DNA of 54,677 nucleotides from contig CAXTTL010000008.1 in NCBI GenBank assembly GCA_964247135.1, positions 1-54,677 on the forward strand. Direction: 5' to 3'. Positions within the stretch are counted from its first letter, which is position 1; each line of letters opens with the position of its first letter. The stretch is from an uncultured Deinococcales bacterium. Lineage in GTDB: Bacteria; Deinococcota; Deinococci; Deinococcales; JAAFIG01. The notes beneath the pieces are model-generated. The model had not been told where the DNA came from and did not search any database. It worked only from the letters and a program-made list of their open reading frames with translations. This document shows positions 9,563-19,353 of this stretch, piece after piece. The translations under genes and the position numbers were made by a program.

Positions 9563-10972
9563 GTGCCAAACCCGTTGCCTGAATCGTTTTTATTTGGCGT
9601 TGCCACTTCAGACCATCAAGGCGAGGCATTTGATCCCAAGACGCCCGACAATTGGGATGTCTGGGAAGCCAAAACCAAACGAACCCCGCGCGGTCGGGGT
9701 ACCGATTTCTGGAACCGTTTTGAAGAGGACATCAAGCTGGCGGCTGGTTTGGGTTGCAAGGTCTTTCGGTTTTCGATTGCCTGGGCGCGGGTCGAACCCA
9801 AACTGGGGCATTACGACGAAGCGGCATTCGATCATTACCGCAGCATCATTGTAGCCATCAAAGCATCGGGAATGCAGCCGCTCATCACGCTTTGCCACTG
9901 GGTTTATCCGCTTCATGTCGAGGCTCGGGGGGGATTGATCGCACCCAGTTTCCCTGAAACTTTTGGAAGTTATGCTCGAGCGGTGGCGGAACGCTTGGGT
10001 TCGGAATGCACGTTTTGGCTCAGTTTTAACGAACCCAACGTCATGTTGCAAGGTTATTTTAAGCCTTGGAACGCCTCGGAGACTTCTCTGCCGCCAGGTT
10101 TGGGAACCGATGACAGTTTGGAGCGTCAGGTGGCGTTGATCGGGCGCTTGTTACCAAATTTATTTCAGGCGCATACTTTGGCGCGTGCCCAAGTGCAAAA
10201 ACTCAATCCATCGGCTCGAGTCAGTGCCAATCCCTTGTTGACTGGTTTGCCGTCTTATGTGCAGTGGTTGCTCGATTGGCGTGTGACCCATACGCGCGAC
10301 CTCGAGCATTTACGACGAATTCAAAAATTGATGACGCCCACTCCGGTGCGGTATCCCAAAGGTACACCCAAAAAAAGGCGGCTTCGTGGTTGGCGCGGTT
10401 TTGTTACCATTTTGCGTTTGGTCTTGACGGGCGCGAACAGCAATTGGTGGCATTTGGGCATGGCTGGCAAACTGCCCGAATTTTTGTGTCCAAAAGAGTG
10501 CGTCAATCAGCATGATTTTGTCGGTTTGGACCATTATTGGGGGGTCAGCAATTGGCAACCTTGGAAAATCGTGGATTTGCTCGAGGCTGGGAGCGGTCGT
10601 TTTGACCGGGCGCCTGTCAATCCTAAAATTTTGTCCAGAACGCTTGGGAAGCTCTCCAAAATGTTTCCCGATCAAGATATTTTGATCATCGAGAACGGGT
10701 CGGTCAGAAGTGGTGTACTCGAGCCTACCGAGTACATTCGGCGGCACGTGCTCGAGGTTCAAAAGGCGGTCGGTGCTGGCGTGCGGGTGATTGGTTATGT
10801 TTGCTGGAGCATTACCAGCAACCGCGAGTGGGGTTTAAAATTTGCGCCCAGCAATGATTTCGGGCTTTATTTTGTCGATTTGGACGGTGATCCGAAATTG
10901 CTGCGGCAGCGCACCAGCACCGCCGATACTTATCAACAGATTATCCACAACCGAGGTGTGGACAACTTTTAA
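9563..10972 (+). CDS. Glycoside hydrolase family 1
   Basis: FLFGVATSDHQGE, FRFSIAWARVEP, acid/base NEP and nucleophile ENG. Confidence 0.92.
   Translation: MPNPLPESFLFGVATSDHQGEAFDPKTPDNWDVWEAKTKRTPRGRGTDFWNRFEEDIKLAAGLGCKVFRFSIAWARVEPKLGHYDEAAFDHYRSIIVAIKASGMQPLITLCHWVYPLHVEARGGLIAPSFPETFGSYARAVAERLGSECTFWLSFNEPNVMLQGYFKPWNASETSLPPGLGTDDSLERQVALIGRLLPNLFQAHTLARAQVQKLNPSARVSANPLLTGLPSYVQWLLDWRVTHTRDLEHLRRIQKLMTPTPVRYPKGTPKKRRLRGWRGFVTILRLVLTGANSNWWHLGMAGKLPEFLCPKECVNQHDFVGLDHYWGVSNWQPWKIVDLLEAGSGRFDRAPVNPKILSRTLGKLSKMFPDQDILIIENGSVRSGVLEPTEYIRRHVLEVQKAVGAGVRVIGYVCWSITSNREWGLKFAPSNDFGLYFVDLDGDPKLLRQRTSTADTYQQIIHNRGVDNF
10930..10965. promoter_or_regulatory. Three DnaA boxes inside the 3' end of the GH1 gene
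   Basis: TTATCAACA at 10930, TTATCCACA at 10941, TGTGGACAA at 10957. Confidence 0.65.
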
Positions 10973-10980
10973 ATCCCTGG

Positions 10981-12540
10981 TTAAGCCGCCTTGATCGGGA
11001 TTTCAAATTGAAAGGTCGAACCTTGACCGGCACCTTTGGATTCCGCCCAGACCTTGCCGCCATGTCCCTCAACGATGGCTTTGACGATCACCAAACCCAA
11101 GCCTGTGCCTTTGCTGCGGTGCGTTTCGCCTGGAAGGCGGGCAAATTTTTCAAACAGCAATTTCAAATGTTCGCTCGAGATGCCATGCCCGGTGTCTTTG
11201 ACACTAAAACGCACGAAATCGTTTTTTTGCTCAAGCGTTACTTCGATTCTGCCATGTTCGGGCGTGTATTTTATGGCATTCGAGATCAGGTTATCGACCA
11301 CTTGTTTGAGTTTGGTTTCGTCAACCAAAGCATGTAGCGTTTCTGGTAACTCGAGTTTTAACGTTTGGTTTTTTTCGGTTGCGATCACGTTGGCTTGGTC
11401 GCTCGAGGATTGAATCAGTTTGCACAAATCGGTGTCTTTGGTTTCAATTTTTAAGTAACCGGCGTCTATTTTGGCGTAATCGAGGTAATCGGTGACCAGG
11501 GAAATCATTTTTTTGGCGGCATCGGATGCCAAGACCAGCATTTTTTGTTGGTTGGCGTCAAAAGTCTGCTTGTCCTCGAGCAATTCGTCGATTGCCAGTT
11601 CGACCACGTTGGCGGGGTTGCGAATGTCGTGGGTGATCATCGAGTAAAAATCGGTTTTCAGTTGCTCGAGTTGCCGTCTGGCAATAATACCGGCGCGGTA
11701 ATTTCTGGCTTGTTCGAGCGCGTCAAAAAATTGGCTTTTGTCCCCTTCAAGCGGCAGGTCTTGCTTTTGAAAGTAACCGTCTGCGCCCTCGCGGATGGTG
11801 GTGATGGCTTTTTTAATATCTTCGGAGCTGGTCAGCATCACCACAACCACGTCTTGGCTGGCGCGTCTGATTTGCTCGAGCACCTGAATGCCGTTAAGGT
11901 CTGGCATCTCGAGGTCGAGTAAAATCAAATCAAATTTGCCGATCTCAGAGATGCGCTCGACGGCTTGCGTGCCATTTTTGGCTTCCTCGAGTTTGGCGTT
12001 TGTTTCCCCAAAAATGCGTTTTAAGGCGCTGCGCACCAATCCAGAATCGTCTACGGTCAAAATACGTTTCCAGCCAGAATTTTCTTGTTCTCTTAAAATT
12101 GGATTGTCCGTGGACACAAACATCGCGGCGTCTTCTTCAAGGGCATTTAAACCTTTTGTGAATGCCTGAAGTTGTTCATGCTCTTCGGCTTTTTCCAGGG
12201 TTTGCAGGCTTGGCTCGAGATCATTAATGTTGATCTCATAGCCGCTCTCGATTGCCGCATTGGCGAGACGTGAGATGGCTTGGCACAGACTCGAAAGCTG
12301 AGGTGCGCCTTGGACTTTTGCCATGTTGGCGAGCGTGGTGGCTTCTGATTCGATGGCGTTTAGCCAATTGTTTTTGGATACATATGCTTCTGGTTGGCGC
12401 CAACGGCTGGTGCTCGAAATGGCAGCGTGTTGAAAATTTTCGAGTTTCACTTTGCCTCCTGGTTGGCTATTTTGGCTGTTTGTTAGCATATCCCGAATTG
12501 CTTGGTCTGGTGCTGTTTTGAAGTTTGGAACTTTGTCCAC
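10981..12540 (-). CDS. Hybrid REC-HisKA-HATPase histidine kinase with N-terminal degenerate Hpt-like segment (start uncertain)
   Basis: VDDS..LLDLEMP receiver, THDIRNP H-box, NLISNAIKYT, DTGHG and GTGLGL. Confidence 0.9.
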   Translation of the reverse strand: MDKVPNFKTAPDQAIRDMLTNSQNSQPGGKVKLENFQHAAISSTSRWRQPEAYVSKNNWLNAIESEATTLANMAKVQGAPQLSSLCQAISRLANAAIESGYEININDLEPSLQTLEKAEEHEQLQAFTKGLNALEEDAAMFVSTDNPILREQENSGWKRILTVDDSGLVRSALKRIFGETNAKLEEAKNGTQAVERISEIGKFDLILLDLEMPDLNGIQVLEQIRRASQDVVVVMLTSSEDIKKAITTIREGADGYFQKQDLPLEGDKSQFFDALEQARNYRAGIIARRQLEQLKTDFYSMITHDIRNPANVVELAIDELLEDKQTFDANQQKMLVLASDAAKKMISLVTDYLDYAKIDAGYLKIETKDTDLCKLIQSSSDQANVIATEKNQTLKLELPETLHALVDETKLKQVVDNLISNAIKYTPEHGRIEVTLEQKNDFVRFSVKDTGHGISSEHLKLLFEKFARLPGETHRSKGTGLGLVIVKAIVEGHGGKVWAESKGAGQGSTFQFEIPIKAA

Positions 12541-12627
12541 AGGTTATCAATTCCTTTTTTGCTTGTGGCACAAGTCCAATAAAAAGTTATCCACATATCC
12601 ACAGGTTTATTCAAATTCTGTGGATAA
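12533..12627. promoter_or_regulatory. DnaA-box cluster downstream of dnaN
   Basis: Perfect boxes at 12587 and 12619; one-mismatch boxes at 12533 and 12595. Confidence 0.8.
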
Positions 12628-13920: not shown

Positions 13921-14174
13921 AAAGCTTTTCTTAGTTTAATAGATTTAGTAGCAGTAGTAGTAGGGGCTGTGGATAGTGTGGATAAGTCGGATTTAACCTG
14001 CCGCAGAGTCAATTTTGCCTGTTTATAAGGTTGTGGATAACTTCAAGTTGCCTGTGGATAACCTGTTGATAAAACTTGAGTTATCCACAGGGTCATCTGA
14101 AAGTCGAGTTATCAACAGGTTATCCACAACTTGTCCACAGCTTGTCCACAGGGTTATCCACAGGGTTATCCACA
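13921..14174. other. Chromosomal replication origin oriC
   Basis: About 13 DnaA boxes, perfect at 13977, 14032, 14053, 14081, 14120, 14154 and 14166. DnaA-trio run TAG TAG CAG TAG TAG TAG at 13946-13963, then an AT-rich tract. Lies between dnaA and dnaN. Confidence 0.95.
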
Positions 14175-14328: not shown

Positions 14329-15666
14329 TTAAGCCAGACGATTGCGAATTTCTCGAATGTTGCTCGAGAGATCGGCGTCTTGTTCGACCTGCTCGGTCAC
14401 CTTTTGAATAGCATACAAAATAGTCGAGTGATCTCGAGCAAAGAATGCCCCGATTTCGGGCAGGCTGTGCGAGGTCAGTTCGCGGATCAAAAACATGGCA
14501 ACTTGACGCGGAATCACCACCTCTTTTGCGCGACCTTGGGTCTTTAAAAGCTCCACTGAAACGTTGTAATGGGCTGCGACAAATGCCAAAATATCAGCCA
14601 TCTCGTAAGTGCTCGGCTCGGTGCTGGTGAAAACATTGGATAAGGCTTTGGCTGCCATCGCCCTGGTGATGTTCTCGCCCTCCAAACCATTGAGGCTGGC
14701 ATAAGCGATCACCCGCATCAATGCCCCTTCGAGTTCTCGAATGTTGCTGGTGACCTGTTTGGCAATAAACTCGAGCACCTCGTCGCTCACTTGGACTCGG
14801 CGGTATTCGGCATTCATGCGCAAAATCGCAATTCGCGTCTCGAGTTCCGGGCTTTGAATATCGGTGATCAAACCCCATTCAAACCTCGAGCGTAACCTCG
14901 CCTCGAGCGTCAAAATATCGCGGGGCGGTCGGTCGCTCGAGAGAATGATTTGCTTGCCAGCTTCGTAGAGCGCGTTAAAGGTGTGAAAGAACTCCTCTTG
15001 GGTCCGCTCTTTGCCGGCAATAAATTGAATGTCATCGACCATCAACAAATCAACATTTCGGTAGCGGTCCTTGAAACTGGTCATTTTGTCTTCACGAATC
15101 GAGTTGATCAGGTCGTTGGTGAAGGTTTCAGTCGAAATGTACTCAATTCTGAGATTCGGAAAACGCTCGGCGACAGAATGTCCGACGGCGTGCATCAAGT
15201 GGGTTTTTCCCAAACCGACGCCGCCATACAGAAACAGTGGGTTATAAGCCTTGCCTGGTTGTTCGGCGACCGCCAGGGCTGCGGCGTGTGCAAAGTTGTT
15301 GTTGGGTCCAATCACAAACTTTTCAAAAGTGTATTTAATGTTCAGCTTGGCTCGACCATTGTCGGCGGGTGTTGCCGCCTGCTTGGTTTTTGGTTCTGGC
15401 TCGAGCACGGCTTCTTGGGTGCTGGGCAATACCCTGAAACCAATTTTTGGCGTTGCCGCCCCAAGGTGCCTTAAAGCCTCCTCGAGCAAACCAAGGTAAT
15501 GCTGCTTTAGCCAATCGGCGGCAAATGAATTGGGTACGCCAATCATATACGTGCCGCTCTCGACACCGATTGGTTTTACCCGCATAAACCAGGTGTGGTA
15601 TTCGACATCGGTGATGTTGCGTTTTACGTAATCTTTTATGTTTTCCCAAATATCCAACTGACTCAC
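14329..15666 (-). CDS. dnaA: Chromosomal replication initiator DnaA
   Basis: [29 protein letters not shown] and RDHSTI motifs. GTG at 15666 with GGAGG. Confidence 0.98.
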
Positions 15667-15822
15667 AATTACTGCCTCCCCGATTGACTCGAGCACCCAT
15701 CTTAAACCTTCAAACATGAACTTGCAGTCTTGACACAAGACCACCGTGAAATATACCTGAGATATGCAGTTTATACTGTCCAGCACGCATAGATCAATTG
15801 CTGTGGTAAATGAATTAACCTG

Positions 15823-15901
15823 TGTTGCACGTGAAACTGTTTATCTGGTAAACATAAATCGAAGATTGGTTGCACGTGAAACTGTTTATCTGGTAAACAT
15901 A
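15823..15901. promoter_or_regulatory. Two parS-like sites inside a perfect 33-bp direct repeat (15824-15856, 15869-15901)
   Basis: TGTTGCACGTGAAACT versus the parS consensus TGTTTCACGTGAAACA. Each is followed by the palindrome TGTTTA-N5-TAAACA. Confidence 0.8.
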
Positions 15902-15904
15902 GAC

Positions 15905-16249
15905 ATGCCTACTCCAGAATTTGATCTTGGATACCTCATCGGACTTACCGTCGCGGAGGGGTCGTTTACCGCAGATCGCCAACAGCCATCATTTCAGTTC
16001 AGATTGCACGAAGAAAATCCTGAGCCATTGCAACGATTGACAAAAGTAATAGGCGGTATCATTTACGGTCCATACAATCACAATGATCGAAAATATTTTG
16101 TTCTGATGTTAAGAGGACCAGCCCTTTGGCGGGCGGTAGAAATTTTTTACGAGCATCTCCCCTATTGCAAAAAGCGCCTATTGTTTATTGAATGGTGGAA
16201 AAAACACCAGGCAAAACTACCTCCATTACCATCAGAACTCGAAGGGTAA
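15905..16249 (+). CDS. Small single-motif LAGLIDADG-like protein (114 aa)
   Basis: N-terminal helix GYLIGLTVAEGSF followed by a beta-strand/LxxxxGG pattern of the LAGLIDADG fold. Ends 5 nt before rsmG. Confidence 0.72.
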   Translation: MPTPEFDLGYLIGLTVAEGSFTADRQQPSFQFRLHEENPEPLQRLTKVIGGIIYGPYNHNDRKYFVLMLRGPALWRAVEIFYEHLPYCKKRLLFIEWWKKHQAKLPPLPSELEG

Positions 16250-16254
16250 ACATC

Positions 16255-16815
16255 ATGAATCAACAACAGCGGCTCGAGAAATACGAGAGTCTGGTCCAAC
16301 AATACTCAAAAACCTTGGACTTAAGCTCGCCTAAGATGCTCGACAAATTCCATATTGCAATAGATAACAGTAAAAAATATGCCGAAATGATCCCAGAATC
16401 GGCAAACGTACTTGATATTGGGTCAGGGGTCGGACTTCCAGGTATCCCATTGGCAATCTTACGACCCGATATCGCAATCACTTTGTGCGAAATCCGTCAA
16501 AAACGGGCAGCATTTCTCGAGCGTGTGGTCAGCACCCTGAAAATTGACAATGCTCGGGTATTTAATGGTGATGTCAAACAAATTAAAACTCAAACTTTTA
16601 ATACCGTCACAGCGCAATCGGTCGGAACGCTGGCGCACCTATACCAATTGTGTAAGAACGCGCTGACCCCAACTTGGGTTATCATGAGCAACAAGGGCGC
16701 AAAACTTGAGCAAGAAATCGCGGAGATTCAAAAAATAACCAACGTTTTGTCGTTTAACACCGAAAAGTTGGATGAAAACGCGACCATTGTCATCGTTTAT
16801 GGAGGTCATTCGTGA
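16255..16815 (+). CDS. rsmG: 16S rRNA m7G527 methyltransferase
   Basis: [16 protein letters not shown] and [10 protein letters not shown] motifs; precedes parAB. Confidence 0.9.
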
Positions 16816-17561
16816 AAATACTGAGCATTGTCAATCAGAAAGGTGGAGTTGGGAAAACCACATCAACCATCAATCTGGCAGCATACCTGGCGATGGGGAA
16901 ACGAAAAGTCTTGGTGATCGATCTCGACCCTCAGGGAAACGCCTCGAGCGGCTTGGGAATCCGAGAGTCTGACGCAGGAATTTACGAGGTATTGAGCGGC
17001 GACGCCGAAATTGAGGCGTCAATCGTCGCAACCGAACAAAAAAACCTGTTTTTGCTCGCCTCGAGTTCGGATTTGGCGGGCGCAAGCATTGAACTTAACG
17101 ATCATCCGAATCGATTAAAGGAAACGTTGGCAAATTTACAAGGCTTTGATATTGTTCTGATCGATGCACCCCCCTCTCTCGGCGCCTTAACGGTAAATGC
17201 TTTGGTGGCATCTCACGGCTTGATCGTGCCACTGCAAGCCGAATACTATGCCTTAGAGGGGGTAGCTGGACTGCTCGAGACGATAGACCGTGTCAAAGAA
17301 GCATTGAACAAGCAACTCAAAACCTTGGGAATTGTGATTACCATGTTCGACGGTCGCACCAATCTGGCGCAACAGGTGGAGGAGAACGTGCGGCGACACT
17401 TTGGAGAACAGGTCTTCTGGTCGGTCATTCCCAGAAACGTCAAACTATCAGAAGCGCCGAGCTACGGAAAAACCATCAATCAATACGCCCCAATGTCAAA
17501 CGGAGCCGGCGCATATCGACGACTGGCAGAAGAGGTGATGCAACGTGCTCAAAAACTCTAA
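16812..17561 (+). CDS. parA: Chromosome partitioning ATPase Soj/ParA
   Basis: [19 protein letters not shown] and [12 protein letters not shown] motifs. Confidence 0.97.
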
Positions 17562-18396
17562 GAAACCAGGAGCCTTGGGACGCGGATTGGATGCACTTTT
17601 GCCCAAAACGACCACCAACCAAACCAATAAAGTCGCCATCTCAGACTTAATTGCCAACAAAGAACAACCACGGACCACGTTTGACGAGGCTGCACTCGAA
17701 GAACTGGCGTCAAGCATCAAAGCAAAAGGTATTTTGCAACCCCTGTTGGTTCGCACCAAGGGCAAAAAATACGAAATTATTGCCGGCGAACGGCGCTTTC
17801 GGGCGGCGCAAATGGCGGGACTGGAAGAAGTCCCCGTCATAGTTCGAGAATTTTCGGATCAAGAGACGCTCGAAATTGCCTTGATCGAAAATCTTCAACG
17901 TGAGGACCTCAATCCGTTAGAAGAGGCTCGAGGCTATAAAAATTTGCTCGAGTTTGGCATCACCCAGGACGAGGCTGCCCAGGCAGTAGGCAAAGCCAGA
18001 AGCACCGTGACCAACTCCTTACGCCTGCTCAGTTTAAGCCAAAATGCCCAGCAAGCACTCGAGGAGGGAACCATTTCGGCTGGTCACGCTCGAGCCATTT
18101 TGGGGATTCAAGAAGAATATCGTGATTGGGCGCTCGAACAGGTTTTAAGCAATGATCTCAATGTGAGGCAAACCGAAGCCTTGAAGCGCAGTTCGGAAAA
18201 CAAAGCGGGCAACGGACCAAGTGCCACGGCTATCGCCGCCAAACCGCGAATTCATCGTCAACTCGAGTTGGAATTGTCACGATATTCGGGGACCAAAGTC
18301 AGAATAATAGGGGAGAACAAAGGCAAGCTGGAGTTGTACTATCATAACCCCGAAGAGTTGAATAGGATTTTGCAAATGCTTGGGTATGAGGTATGA
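17545..18396 (+). CDS. parB: Chromosome partitioning protein Spo0J/ParB
   Basis: [25 protein letters not shown] and HTH. Confidence 0.97.
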
Positions 18397-18431: not shown

Positions 18432-18545
18432 ATGAAACCGCGAACCAGGCAATCCTACCAGCAAGACGACCCATCAAACACCACCACACGAAGCCGACAA
18501 GCCGCGCCAAGGTGCGAACAGGAGGAACGACATGCCAGCATTTGA
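18432..18545 (+). CDS. Possible 37-aa upstream ORF overlapping the next start codon
   Basis: AGGAGA 9 nt before ATG; MKPRTRQSYQQDD...ERHASI*. Confidence 0.3.
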   Translation: MKPRTRQSYQQDDPSNTTTRSRQAAPRCEQEERHASI

Positions 18546-19353
18546 CCCTCGAGACTACTTGATCAAACTCGGAAGCAAAGATTACTTGCCCGTGGCGGCA
18601 CGGTTATTGTGGTTAAACGAGAAAGAAGAAAACTTTACGATTCATACCGAAATTCTCAAACTCGAGGATACCTATGCCGTCTGCCTCGCCATCGTCAGTA
18701 TTCACGACAAACTGGGCGCCGTTGTGAAATCTGCCCGGGCATACAAACGCGAGGACAAAACCCACTTCCCAGACTTTATTGAGAAAGCCTCGACCGGAGC
18801 GGTTGGACGCGCCTTGGGGATGCTCGGTTTTGGCACCCAATTCACCACAGAATTTGACGAACTTGAAGCCAACCTCGAGCCAAGGGTCGTGGATACCCCG
18901 CAAACCACGCCAAAAAATGCCCAAACTGCCATCTCGAGCTTACCTGCCGCCGCTCGAGCGACCGTTGGCACGGCTTCCCAACTTGGTGCGCCCACAAACA
19001 AACGCAAACCGCAGAATCTCGAGCCGGAAACCTCAACCCCAGCGCCACAATCTCGAAGTCCAAGGGCGGAACTCGACATTGACGACGGCTTAGAAGAATA
19101 CGATCACAGCGCAATCAGCGACGAGGATTTGTTCTCAGAATCCAAGGTGCGACGCTTGATGGCAATTGGCAGCAAACTTTTTAACTTGCGTGACGAATCG
19201 CTCGAGAATCGATTGATTGAGGCGAGTTCTAAAATTTTAAAGAAATCCATTGCCGATTTGAACGCACTCCATTGGCGCGACGGCAACGAAGTCATGCGAC
19301 AGCTCGAGGAAACCGCCGTCAAACGCGGTGTTTGGGATGCCGCAAGCCGATAA
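18532..19353 (+). CDS. Rad52/Sak-like single-strand annealing protein (putative)
   Basis: KDYLPVAARLLW..EKASTGAVGRALGMLGFG resembles the phage Rad52-like SSAP core. Low-complexity linker and small helical C-domain; AGGAGG RBS. Confidence 0.65.
   Translation: MPAFDPRDYLIKLGSKDYLPVAARLLWLNEKEENFTIHTEILKLEDTYAVCLAIVSIHDKLGAVVKSARAYKREDKTHFPDFIEKASTGAVGRALGMLGFGTQFTTEFDELEANLEPRVVDTPQTTPKNAQTAISSLPAAARATVGTASQLGAPTNKRKPQNLEPETSTPAPQSRSPRAELDIDDGLEEYDHSAISDEDLFSESKVRRLMAIGSKLFNLRDESLENRLIEASSKILKKSIADLNALHWRDGNEVMRQLEETAVKRGVWDAASR

Follow-up and report, generated by a model that had tools for sequence, protein, structure and literature searches.

A 54,677-nucleotide (nt) stretch of DNA from an uncultured Deinococcales bacterium (assembly GCA_964247135.1, contig CAXTTL010000008.1, positions 1 to 54,677, hereafter the window) carries, beside its chromosome partitioning genes parA and parB, a 114-amino-acid (aa) open reading frame (ORF) at 15905-16249 that we named X. 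The assembly comprises 5.09 Mb and is 84% complete. ParABS is regarded as a three-part system composed of ParA, ParB and the palindromic site parS. We found that X belongs to a family of LAGLIDADG-fold proteins whose genes mostly lie beside rsmG, parA or parB, that a modified parS is found directly upstream of nearly all of them, and that the perfect 16-bp parS is missing from the X carriers surveyed. From these patterns X is most likely a domesticated, possibly still catalytic LAGLIDADG protein, and there is good evolutionary evidence that it acts on or with the modified site. The reading we favour, tentatively and with somewhat less than even confidence, is that X and the modified parS constitute one functional ParABS module, in which an X homodimer and ParB would together form a centromere and operator.

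The modified site was first described in the window as two 33-nt copies upstream of X (Table 1), which are 100% identical and 45 nt apart. The spacing from the proximal unit to the X start codon is conserved in relatives. When compared with the parS pattern TGTTNCACGTGAAACA, positions 15823-15838 had 1 mismatch (15/16) and positions 15868-15883 had 2 (14/16). The pattern is not rare at 3 or fewer mismatches (5 matches versus 2.05 expected), but the exact core GTTNCACGTGNAAC occurred in the whole assembly at these two places only. The same was true of the second palindrome, TGTTTA-N5-TAAACA, for which the reversed control gave 1 place. By sequence and place, both sites count as parS, since they match the 16-bp palindrome TGTTNCACGTGAAACA and lie close to parAB and oriC. 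ParB keeps its GERRxRA motif and recognition helix, and both are candidate ParB-binding sites. A preliminary description of the window, made from its letters, had reported a perfect 33-bp unit with a 45-bp period, fusing a parS-like 16-mer to TGTTTA-N5-TAAACA and ending 3 nt from the ATG, and every one of these details was confirmed.

The units also affect how X is delimited. The frame 15764-16249 is open through both of them, yielding the same pseudo-peptide twice. A 161-aa form of X starting at ATG 15764 was rejected, as the extension arises merely from translation of the repeated units and differs in length from one relative to another. Public gene calls of X relatives use extended starts (161-177 aa), and their "conserved N-terminal peptide" is the DNA site.

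A word-based homologue search returned only 8 relatives, all 8 contig loci being from Deinococcales metagenome-assembled genomes (MAGs), and suggested that X was an orphan. That view was overturned by an exhaustive profile search, which found 253 representative proteins at E ≤ 1e-3 (87 of them at E ≤ 1e-10), and by a search seeded with a homologue from a Deinococcus-type genus, g7, which found 3080 proteins in multiple phyla. Where family members carry a name, UniRef gives it as "Homing endonuclease LAGLIDADG domain-containing protein", and otherwise they are called "hypothetical protein". Named carriers include many Deinococcus species, Calidithermus, Meiothermus, Candidatus Binatia MAGs and Tellurirhabdus rosea. 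Two subtypes were recognized. The window subtype has GEGSFT.D..QP and a KR..F..W tail, and the widespread subtype has GEGHFGGDGKQPQ and a ..RY..MK.RY.L tail. Within one order, the subtype of the window's family and that of a sister family are 27-36% identical, while copies labelled as other phyla share 57-70% identity with the sister-family subtype. X was present as a single copy in 94 of 301 sampled genomes of the order; the sampled genomes are related, so that counts are not independent, and include many incomplete MAGs. By family, and leaving out the window genome, it was found in 15/18, 0/96, 66/95, 0/23 and 12/68 genomes. A tblastn search found 0 copies of X in 72,556 plasmid records and 50,697 phage records. 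Longer relatives (P0010, P0041, P0153) include a 301-aa tandem two-domain form; more distant relatives are joined to HNH_3 or Archease domains, and none is fused to a ParB or helix-turn-helix (HTH) domain.

The form of the site was found to follow the subtype of X. In the window's family it is a 31-bp architecture upstream of X and on its strand, in which a parS-like 14-mer abuts TGTTTN-N5-NAAACA. This architecture was present in 15 of 16 window-family loci, usually in two copies, and the sixteenth locus was cut 27 nt before X. It was found in 0 of 2 window-family loci from X-less genomes, and 732 kb of other-subtype loci contained no instance of it. At L031, where X is inverted, the site was still upstream of X. 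With the widespread subtype, parS is split at its dyad as GTTTCAC-N13-GTGAAAC. A split site lay at most 300 bp upstream of X in 74 of the 77 loci with enough upstream DNA, two copies being present in 44 loci, one in 29 and three in 1. The 13-bp spacer was counted at 121 sites over 80 loci, and no site had a spacer of 8-12 or 14-18 bp. Outside this upstream position, about 354 kb contained only 3 plus-strand split sites.

The consensus of 106 unique split sites was GTTtCAC GnGaaAC ntGACG GTGAAACA ac. The arm nearer to X was exact in 121/122 split sites and the far arm in 73/122. On this consensus, most split sites can be read as a slightly degenerate parS, followed by 6 nt and a third, invariant half-site. 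In none of 127 instances did the first 14 nt form a perfect canonical core; the segS consensus of D. radiodurans, as quoted in the available text of PMC7671480, is compatible with this 14-nt stretch. The block holding the third half-site was nearly invariant across lineages in which X differs by ~40%, and the GERRxRA motif and recognition helix of ParB were alike in lineages with and without X. The palindrome TGTTTA-N5-TAAACA had been proposed as the element that accompanies X. This holds in the window's family; elsewhere the widespread form is parS split by 13 bp. An RNA hairpin reading of the site was dropped, since Rfam returned 0 families and the arms do not co-vary, the left one varying against an invariant right one. 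In g7, as we read the site strings from the 301-genome scan, ACGG stands at either boundary of the split-site core, the two occurrences being 12 nt apart. Were a slipped deletion to join these ACGG repeats, parS arms around a 5-nt centre would remain, a geometry shared with the second palindrome of the window's family.

X adjoined rsmG-parA in 30 of 30 loci fetched from the order, and in the same orientation in all except the inverted L031. Among metagenome loci, taken as the best 80 of 525 confirmed loci, rsmG, parA or parB was beside X in 66; of the remaining 14, 11 were short or truncated near X. At least four arrangements were seen: mnmG-X-rsmG-parAB, mnmG-rsmG-X-parAB, X divergent from rsmG-parAB, and X convergent with parB. 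The gene dnaA was adjacent to X in the window's family only, and the order in g7 was mnmG-X-rsmG-parA. The expectation that homologues would sit between dnaA and rsmG/parAB, with parS and a co-varying element, was therefore upheld for the par linkage (30/30, 66/80) and for the parS-derived element (74/77, 15/16), and for dnaA it was restricted to the window's family. The suggestion that X occupies a slot normally held by mnmG did not hold, since in g7 X sits between mnmG and rsmG and mnmG has not been replaced. In two metagenome loci that represent a minority clade, L079 (2953-5547) and L071 (3977-5535), X was found before genes for an aldo-keto reductase, a DUF429 protein and a GAF-HD protein, with no split site; in L079 it directly follows a XerC/D-like tyrosine recombinase.

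X and the perfect 16-mer parS were mutually exclusive in the 301 genomes. The strict split-site pattern was found in 70 genomes, with 1-2 copies each (reversed control, 0), all of them among the 78 X carriers of the two families concerned, and in 0 of 207 X-less genomes. The perfect 16-mer TGTTTCACGTGAAACA was found in 82 genomes (a tally that includes one flagged as unpublished, G250), none of which was among the 94 X carriers. In three complete X genomes, a parS-like core was present only at 1-2 sites upstream of X. X-less relatives had 2-5 canonical parS sites, and in X-less genomes of the window's family canonical sites lay inside the rsmG 3' end and inside parB.

The history of this exclusion was followed in g7 by surveying the mnmG 3' region of 107 genomes. 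X was just downstream of mnmG in 80, of which 78 had at least one strict split site. The two carriers without a strict site were G322, which has a linker variant, and G259, in which both sites are degenerate and X is extremely diverged (branch length 10). The 27 genomes without X at this place had 1-5 canonical-like 14-mers, often at the mnmG stop, where they occupy the exact position of the carriers' distal split site. G112 has no X and keeps a decayed split-site remnant. The loci L221 (G259) and L176 (G112) show signs of co-decay of X and its sites. On a tree of MnmG, RsmG and ParA from 105 genomes, X absence required 7 changes, at least 5 of them forced by well-supported branches, versus an average of 22.6 changes with shuffled labels. 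The X tree was compatible with the host tree, in that copies of one deep host clade may group (approximately unbiased test, p-AU 0.435). The simplest reading of these trees is that X was ancestral in g7, descended vertically and was lost several times, canonical parS taking over on each occasion. A perfect canonical 14-mer was present inside mnmG in two X-carrying g7 genomes. This intragenic 14-mer (L134-L240, about position 343) was mostly ATTTCACGTGAAAC in X genomes (13 genomes), and GTTTCACGTGAAAC or GTTTCCCGTGAAAC in X-less genomes.

Selection on X was compared with that on its neighbours at six window-genus loci (15 pairs). The ratios of nonsynonymous to synonymous substitution (dN/dS) by the Nei-Gojobori method were 0.035 for X, 0.026 for parA, 0.043 for parB and 0.074 for rsmG, which are approximate because dS was 1.2-1.9 and near saturation. 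The 33-bp units were nearly unchanged across the same six loci. Decay of the X frame was rare, with an in-frame stop in 1 of 94 copies from the order, 1 of 80 g7 copies decayed and 0 of 80 metagenome copies broken. Metagenome X proteins were 57-81% identical to the g7 protein, with 45-58% for ParA and 26-71% for RsmG; L047 and L060, both Deinococcus-like, were the only loci in which RsmG identity rose above 49%.

The fold of X was predicted with AlphaFold2 (AF2). The model from 7 relatives had a predicted local distance difference test (pLDDT) score of 75.7 and elements in the order alpha-beta-beta-alpha-beta-beta-alpha. The model from 38 sequences had a pLDDT of 85.7, a predicted template modelling (pTM) score of 0.76 and the same element order. 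The X models have the four-stranded saddle core by which the LAGLIDADG fold is recognized; after the core, the model has only helices and no HTH. All matches that Foldseek listed for the pLDDT-75.7 model were LAGLIDADG enzymes, the best being I-TnaI (5.4e-4). In a structure search independent of Foldseek, run against 48,161 representative chains, the top 18 ranks were all LAGLIDADG-domain proteins (homing endonucleases, inteins and WhiA). The Z-scores were 10.4 for 3uvf, 9.8 for I-Vdi141I, 9.6 for I-TnaI, 9.1 for PI-PfuI, 9.0 for I-LtrI, 8.7 for I-CreI, 8.5 for WhiA (8dy9_I) and 8.4 for I-CeuI, and ten LAGLIDADG entries spanned 10.4-8.1. The better model and this ranking bear out the LAGLIDADG fold given to X in the preliminary description.

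The motif helix of X is LGYLIGLTVAEGSF, with the acidic residue E18 at its end. G9, G13, E18 and G19 were invariant in 38 sequences, and X has the LAGLIDADG motif helix by this measure. The acidic residue was kept in 118/120 proteins of the widespread type, in 80/80 metagenome copies and in 117 of the 126 representative proteins with a matchable motif, the other 9 being non-acidic. Residues invariant in both subtypes were G9, G13, E18, G19, F21, D24, Q27, Y54, G55 and P56, together with Y57, H59, R62, Y64, R70, G71 and L74, and they map mostly to the four predicted beta strands.

Sequence models were also applied. Of the Pfam LAGLIDADG models considered (PF00961, PF14528 and PF03161), window X missed the curated cut-offs of LAGLIDADG_1 (E = 0.14; 13.5 versus 23.1 bits) and of a second LAGLIDADG model (12.5 versus 22.5), and no NCBIfam family matched it. 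LAGLIDADG_3 (PF14528) was matched by 8 of 21 relatives at E ≤ 0.1, with a best value of 2.5e-4, and the tandem two-domain relative passed its cut-off (30.3 versus 22.5 bits). A profile of the 21-member family matched I-GzeII at 9e-4, and a narrow-profile, sequence-only search of the Protein Data Bank gave E = 0.11 at best. X is a divergent LAGLIDADG subfamily that current sequence models miss. Sub-threshold Pfam matching by the window protein alone and a start that differs among gene callers (114 to 177 aa) are what might be seen if X were a chance ORF behind a recent local duplication. This account is refuted by the conservation, the fold and the dN/dS ratio, and we consider it extremely improbable.

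That X acts on or with the site is indicated because the architecture follows the X subtype and not ParB, vanishes with X, and is held in its geometry to the base pair. ParB presumably still needs GTTTCAC half-sites, since its motif and recognition helix are the same with and without X and since parA and parB are strongly constrained; the only GTTTCAC half-sites of the carriers adjoin X. In the proposed module, X would homodimerize, as single-domain LAGLIDADG proteins do. The dimer would occupy the non-canonical part of the site, which is the TGTTTA-N5-TAAACA palindrome in the window's family, or the 13-bp core with the inner arms in most other lineages, and ParB would occupy the GTTTCAC/GTGAAAC half-sites. 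The joint X-ParB complex would be the only, or nearly the only, centromere of the cell. The same complex may serve as an operator that feeds back on X-rsmG-parA-parB, because the site overlaps the promoter of X itself. We infer the X dimer, DNA binding by X, its cooperation with ParB, and repression. The further roles suggested in the preliminary description, modulation of ParB loading and of dnaA expression, are likewise conjectural.

Several observations weigh against a single module of this kind. No par gene lies within 4 kb on either side of X in L054, L071 and L079, and L071, L079 and L089 have no site upstream of X. In G100 (L133, G100:C1:9000-28000), an intact X-rsmG-parA-parB is separated by ~10 kb of other genes from the site, which stands at the mnmG stop as a single remaining copy. 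The N5 palindrome and the 13-bp split differ in geometry, yet the strand residues of X are shared, and one rigid X dimer cannot read both geometries alike. The distances between subtypes imply, from the sequences, old horizontal transfer or paralogy, so that the deep history of X departs from that of its hosts. The conserved acidic motif residue fits an active nuclease better than a pure binder such as WhiA. Finally, conservation of the site could largely come from ParB half-sites and promoter elements alone. The last two points lead to different readings of the system.

According to the first, the main rival, X would be a selfish or conflict element, an active free-standing endonuclease targeting canonical parS, and the modified sites beside it would be immune to cleavage and still ParB-competent, the cassette spreading by homing or by recombination of its flanks. 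We think this unlikely. A parS-targeting nuclease would explain the acidic residue, the lack of a perfect parS in carriers, the disruption exactly at the dyad, and the return of canonical parS after loss of X. The catalytic-type residue is indeed kept in nearly all members, and a homodimeric LAGLIDADG enzyme suits a palindromic and universally conserved target. The disruption at the dyad is found beside X wherever parS lies relative to parAB; no X genome has the perfect 16-mer, and no split site has the perfect canonical 14-mer core. X is also patchy at the family level (0/96, 0/23, 12/68, 66/95, 15/18), and the distribution of its two subtypes conflicts with host relationships. However, in g7 the inheritance of X was vertical and the pattern fits losses rather than gains. 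Purifying selection on X was as strong as on parA and parB, decay was rare (1/94, 1/80, 0/80), and X was on no plasmid or phage record examined. Perfect canonical 14-mers coexist with X, both inside mnmG of two g7 genomes and, in the window genus, as the first part of the distal unit (L002, L003). The near-invariance of the extra half-site block, across X proteins differing by ~40%, points to function rather than to a scar. Carriers might have been forced onto an immune centromere, split by 13 bp or flanked by a second palindrome, that works only with X, which would make X a centromere-targeting homing or incompatibility system; we hold this version to be similarly doubtful.

The second reading concerns the overlap of the site with the promoter of X. 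In the window, a candidate core promoter lies inside the proximal unit (Table 1), 5 nt separate TAAACA from the ATG, and there is no Shine-Dalgarno sequence. Because of this short gap and the missing Shine-Dalgarno sequence, the X mRNA of the window is probably leaderless. Leaderless mRNAs are common in the Deinococcota phylum, according to the available text of two articles (PMC4007540, PMC12340547). A consensus sigma-70 scan called no promoter in the units, and TAAACA is not a TANNNT hexamer. A search for RNA data covering 15500-17000 listed no matching run, ten runs each containing only 5-6% of its words. In g7, TTGAC was found exactly 14 nt before the proximal site in 67/78 loci. It lies 17 nt before GAAACT (site positions 10-15), which is present in 75/78 loci, and a Shine-Dalgarno-like stretch follows the site in 66/78. 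These spacings place the far half-site in the promoter spacer, a -10-like hexamer in the 13-bp core, and the invariant half-site at about +1.

It may accordingly be asked whether ParB alone reads the site, the modified parS being a ParB operator in the X promoter and X a regulated passenger, whose activity, be it nuclease, repair, defence or other, would take place elsewhere in the cell and leave this DNA aside. We assign this a low probability. Every conserved arm is a ParB half-site and the recognition helix of ParB is unchanged. The 13-bp core has its -10-like hexamer at a fixed distance from a -35 (67/78 g7 loci) and is followed by the Shine-Dalgarno-like stretch (66/78), and the window unit can be read as -35, extended -10 and leaderless ATG. 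In addition, the X frame is intact even where it lies ~10 kb from the site (G100) or has no site (L071, L079). Nevertheless, a site needed by ParB alone should persist without X, and the repeated co-loss, in which the site decays or reverts to canonical parS upon loss or decay of X (G112, G259 and at least 5 independent losses), counts against this reading. The architecture also differs between the X subtypes, whereas ParB does not, and a half-site with a weak -10 would require neither so strict a 13-bp spacing nor the nearly invariant 14-nt block next to X.

Among the known systems closest to X are the homodimeric single-domain LAGLIDADG homing endonucleases I-CreI, I-TnaI, I-Vdi141I, I-CeuI and I-MsoI. 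They have the same domain, and 95-103 of the 114 X residues align with them at Z 8.1-9.8. Like homing endonucleases, X is small, has a motif helix ending in Gly-acidic-Gly, and has palindromic DNA beside its gene. Unlike them, it is not in an intron or intein, was found 0 times on plasmid and phage records, and is single-copy, par-syntenic, vertically inherited (g7) and under strong purifying selection. X is also shorter (114 aa versus about 150-170), is sub-threshold in Pfam, and has family-specific invariant residues, YGPY.H, R.Y and RG, that set it apart from homing endonucleases.

WhiA, a domesticated transcription factor of Gram-positive bacteria that matches the X model with a Z of 8.5, has kept the LAGLIDADG fold for a host function. 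In Streptomyces, according to the available text of PMC3240954, WhiA binds its own promoter and parABp2, and it consists of two degenerate LAGLIDADG domains and a C-terminal HTH that drives DNA binding. Action of a LAGLIDADG protein on par expression therefore has a precedent in its binding to parABp2. In contrast to WhiA, X has one domain, no HTH and a retained acidic residue; the two share no sequence family, and X does not belong to the WhiA family. The comparison "domesticated like WhiA" is an analogy only. Another domesticated LAGLIDADG enzyme, the yeast HO endonuclease, is still catalytic and cuts one programmed chromosomal site. HO is a precedent for a host-retained LAGLIDADG protein with its active site, but it is eukaryotic, intein-derived and much larger than X.

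As in canonical ParABS, parA and parB are ordinary here, the site arms are exact parS half-sites, and the site is beside parAB near oriC. The difference is that the only parS-like sites of the carriers are 1-2 modified sites, always beside X. To our knowledge, no third protein acts with chromosomal ParABS at parS. Composite centromeres or operators with a second DNA-binding protein are known from KorA beside KorB on plasmid RK2 and from IHF within P1 parS. These give a working analogy, in which the action of a ParB-family protein depends on a small partner at an adjacent or embedded element and is combined with operon repression. The RK2 and P1 partners have an HTH or IHF fold and belong to plasmids and phages, whereas the candidate partner X is a chromosomal LAGLIDADG protein. 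Apart from work on WhiA, a literature search, in which subscription journals were mostly outside the coverage, found no paper that connects a LAGLIDADG protein with ParB or parS. No publication on X was found, in agreement with the earlier suggestion that it is a possibly undescribed component.

The features of the window around X are listed in Table 1. The gap from the X stop to the rsmG start (16255) is 5 nt, the ends of rsmG, parA and parB overlap successively, and a scan found no plus-strand terminator-like site between X, rsmG, parA and parB. The coordinates and Pfam matches agree with the preliminary description, in which X heads rsmG-parA-parB and ends 5 nt before rsmG. That X is free-standing was likewise borne out, as no intron or intein was found around the ORF and Rfam returned 0 families at E ≤ 1 for positions 15600-16400.

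Table 1. Positions of X, its upstream sites and neighbouring features in the window.
Feature	Position	Strand	Description
Main DnaA-box cluster	13968..14174		13 boxes around the dnaN-dnaA spacer; probable oriC
dnaA	14329..15716	-	Divergent from X; Bac_DnaA 1.9e-74; start set at conserved ATG 15716-15714
Distal 33-bp unit	15824..15856	+	parS-like 16-mer 15823-15838 abutting TGTTTA-TCTGG-TAAACA at 15838-15854
Proximal 33-bp unit	15869..15901	+	parS-like 16-mer 15868-15883; palindrome 15883-15899; ends 3 nt before the ATG
Candidate core promoter of X	15870..15899	+	TTGCAC 15870-15875, 18-nt spacer, TGg+TAAACA 15891-15899; inside the proximal unit
Gene X	15905..16249	+	114-codon frame, ATG 15905, TAA 16247-16249; single-domain LAGLIDADG-fold protein
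rsmG (16S rRNA m7G527 methyltransferase)	16255..16815	+	Pfam GidB 1.1e-32; TIGR00138 109.6 bits versus cut-off 99.5
parA (Soj-type ATPase)	16812..17561	+	Pfam AAA_31 2.8e-53; start overlaps the rsmG stop
parB	17545..18396	+	Pfam ParB_N 1.7e-36; GERRFRAA motif, canonical HTH recognition helix

The longest dnaA frame opens at GTG 15786 on the minus strand, and conservation in relatives begins at ATG 15716, which leaves a 188-bp spacer toward X. A conserved stretch lies directly upstream of this ATG in relatives. DnaA-box matches numbered 24 in the whole window versus 7.6 expected, and 13 of the 24 are in the main cluster, ~1.7 kb from the parS-like sites. The boxes form three clusters, at 10930-10965 (3), 12533-12627 (4) and 13968-14174 (13), which flank a histidine-kinase gene, dnaN and dnaA; none is within the dnaA-X spacer. 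Just past parB, an ORF of 273 aa (18532-19353, plus strand) has no Pfam or NCBIfam match and is kept at 57-96% identity across the family, X-less genomes included.

Many bacteria appear from this analysis to be without a canonical parS, among them the majority of species in a well-sampled Deinococcus-type genus, Calidithermus, Meiothermus relatives, and organisms behind contigs labelled Binatia and Bacteroidota. Predictors that expect a palindromic parS will miss such modified centromeres, and gene callers read through the sites and so place the start of X wrongly. Should X prove to be a centromere co-factor, it would be a new component of bacterial chromosome segregation and the second known LAGLIDADG domestication in bacteria. 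If it is instead a nuclease directed at parS, a new kind of genetic conflict would be playing out at the centromere, one that has driven centromere remodelling in bacteria. Cultured, non-pathogenic carriers of X exist, which makes the question directly testable.

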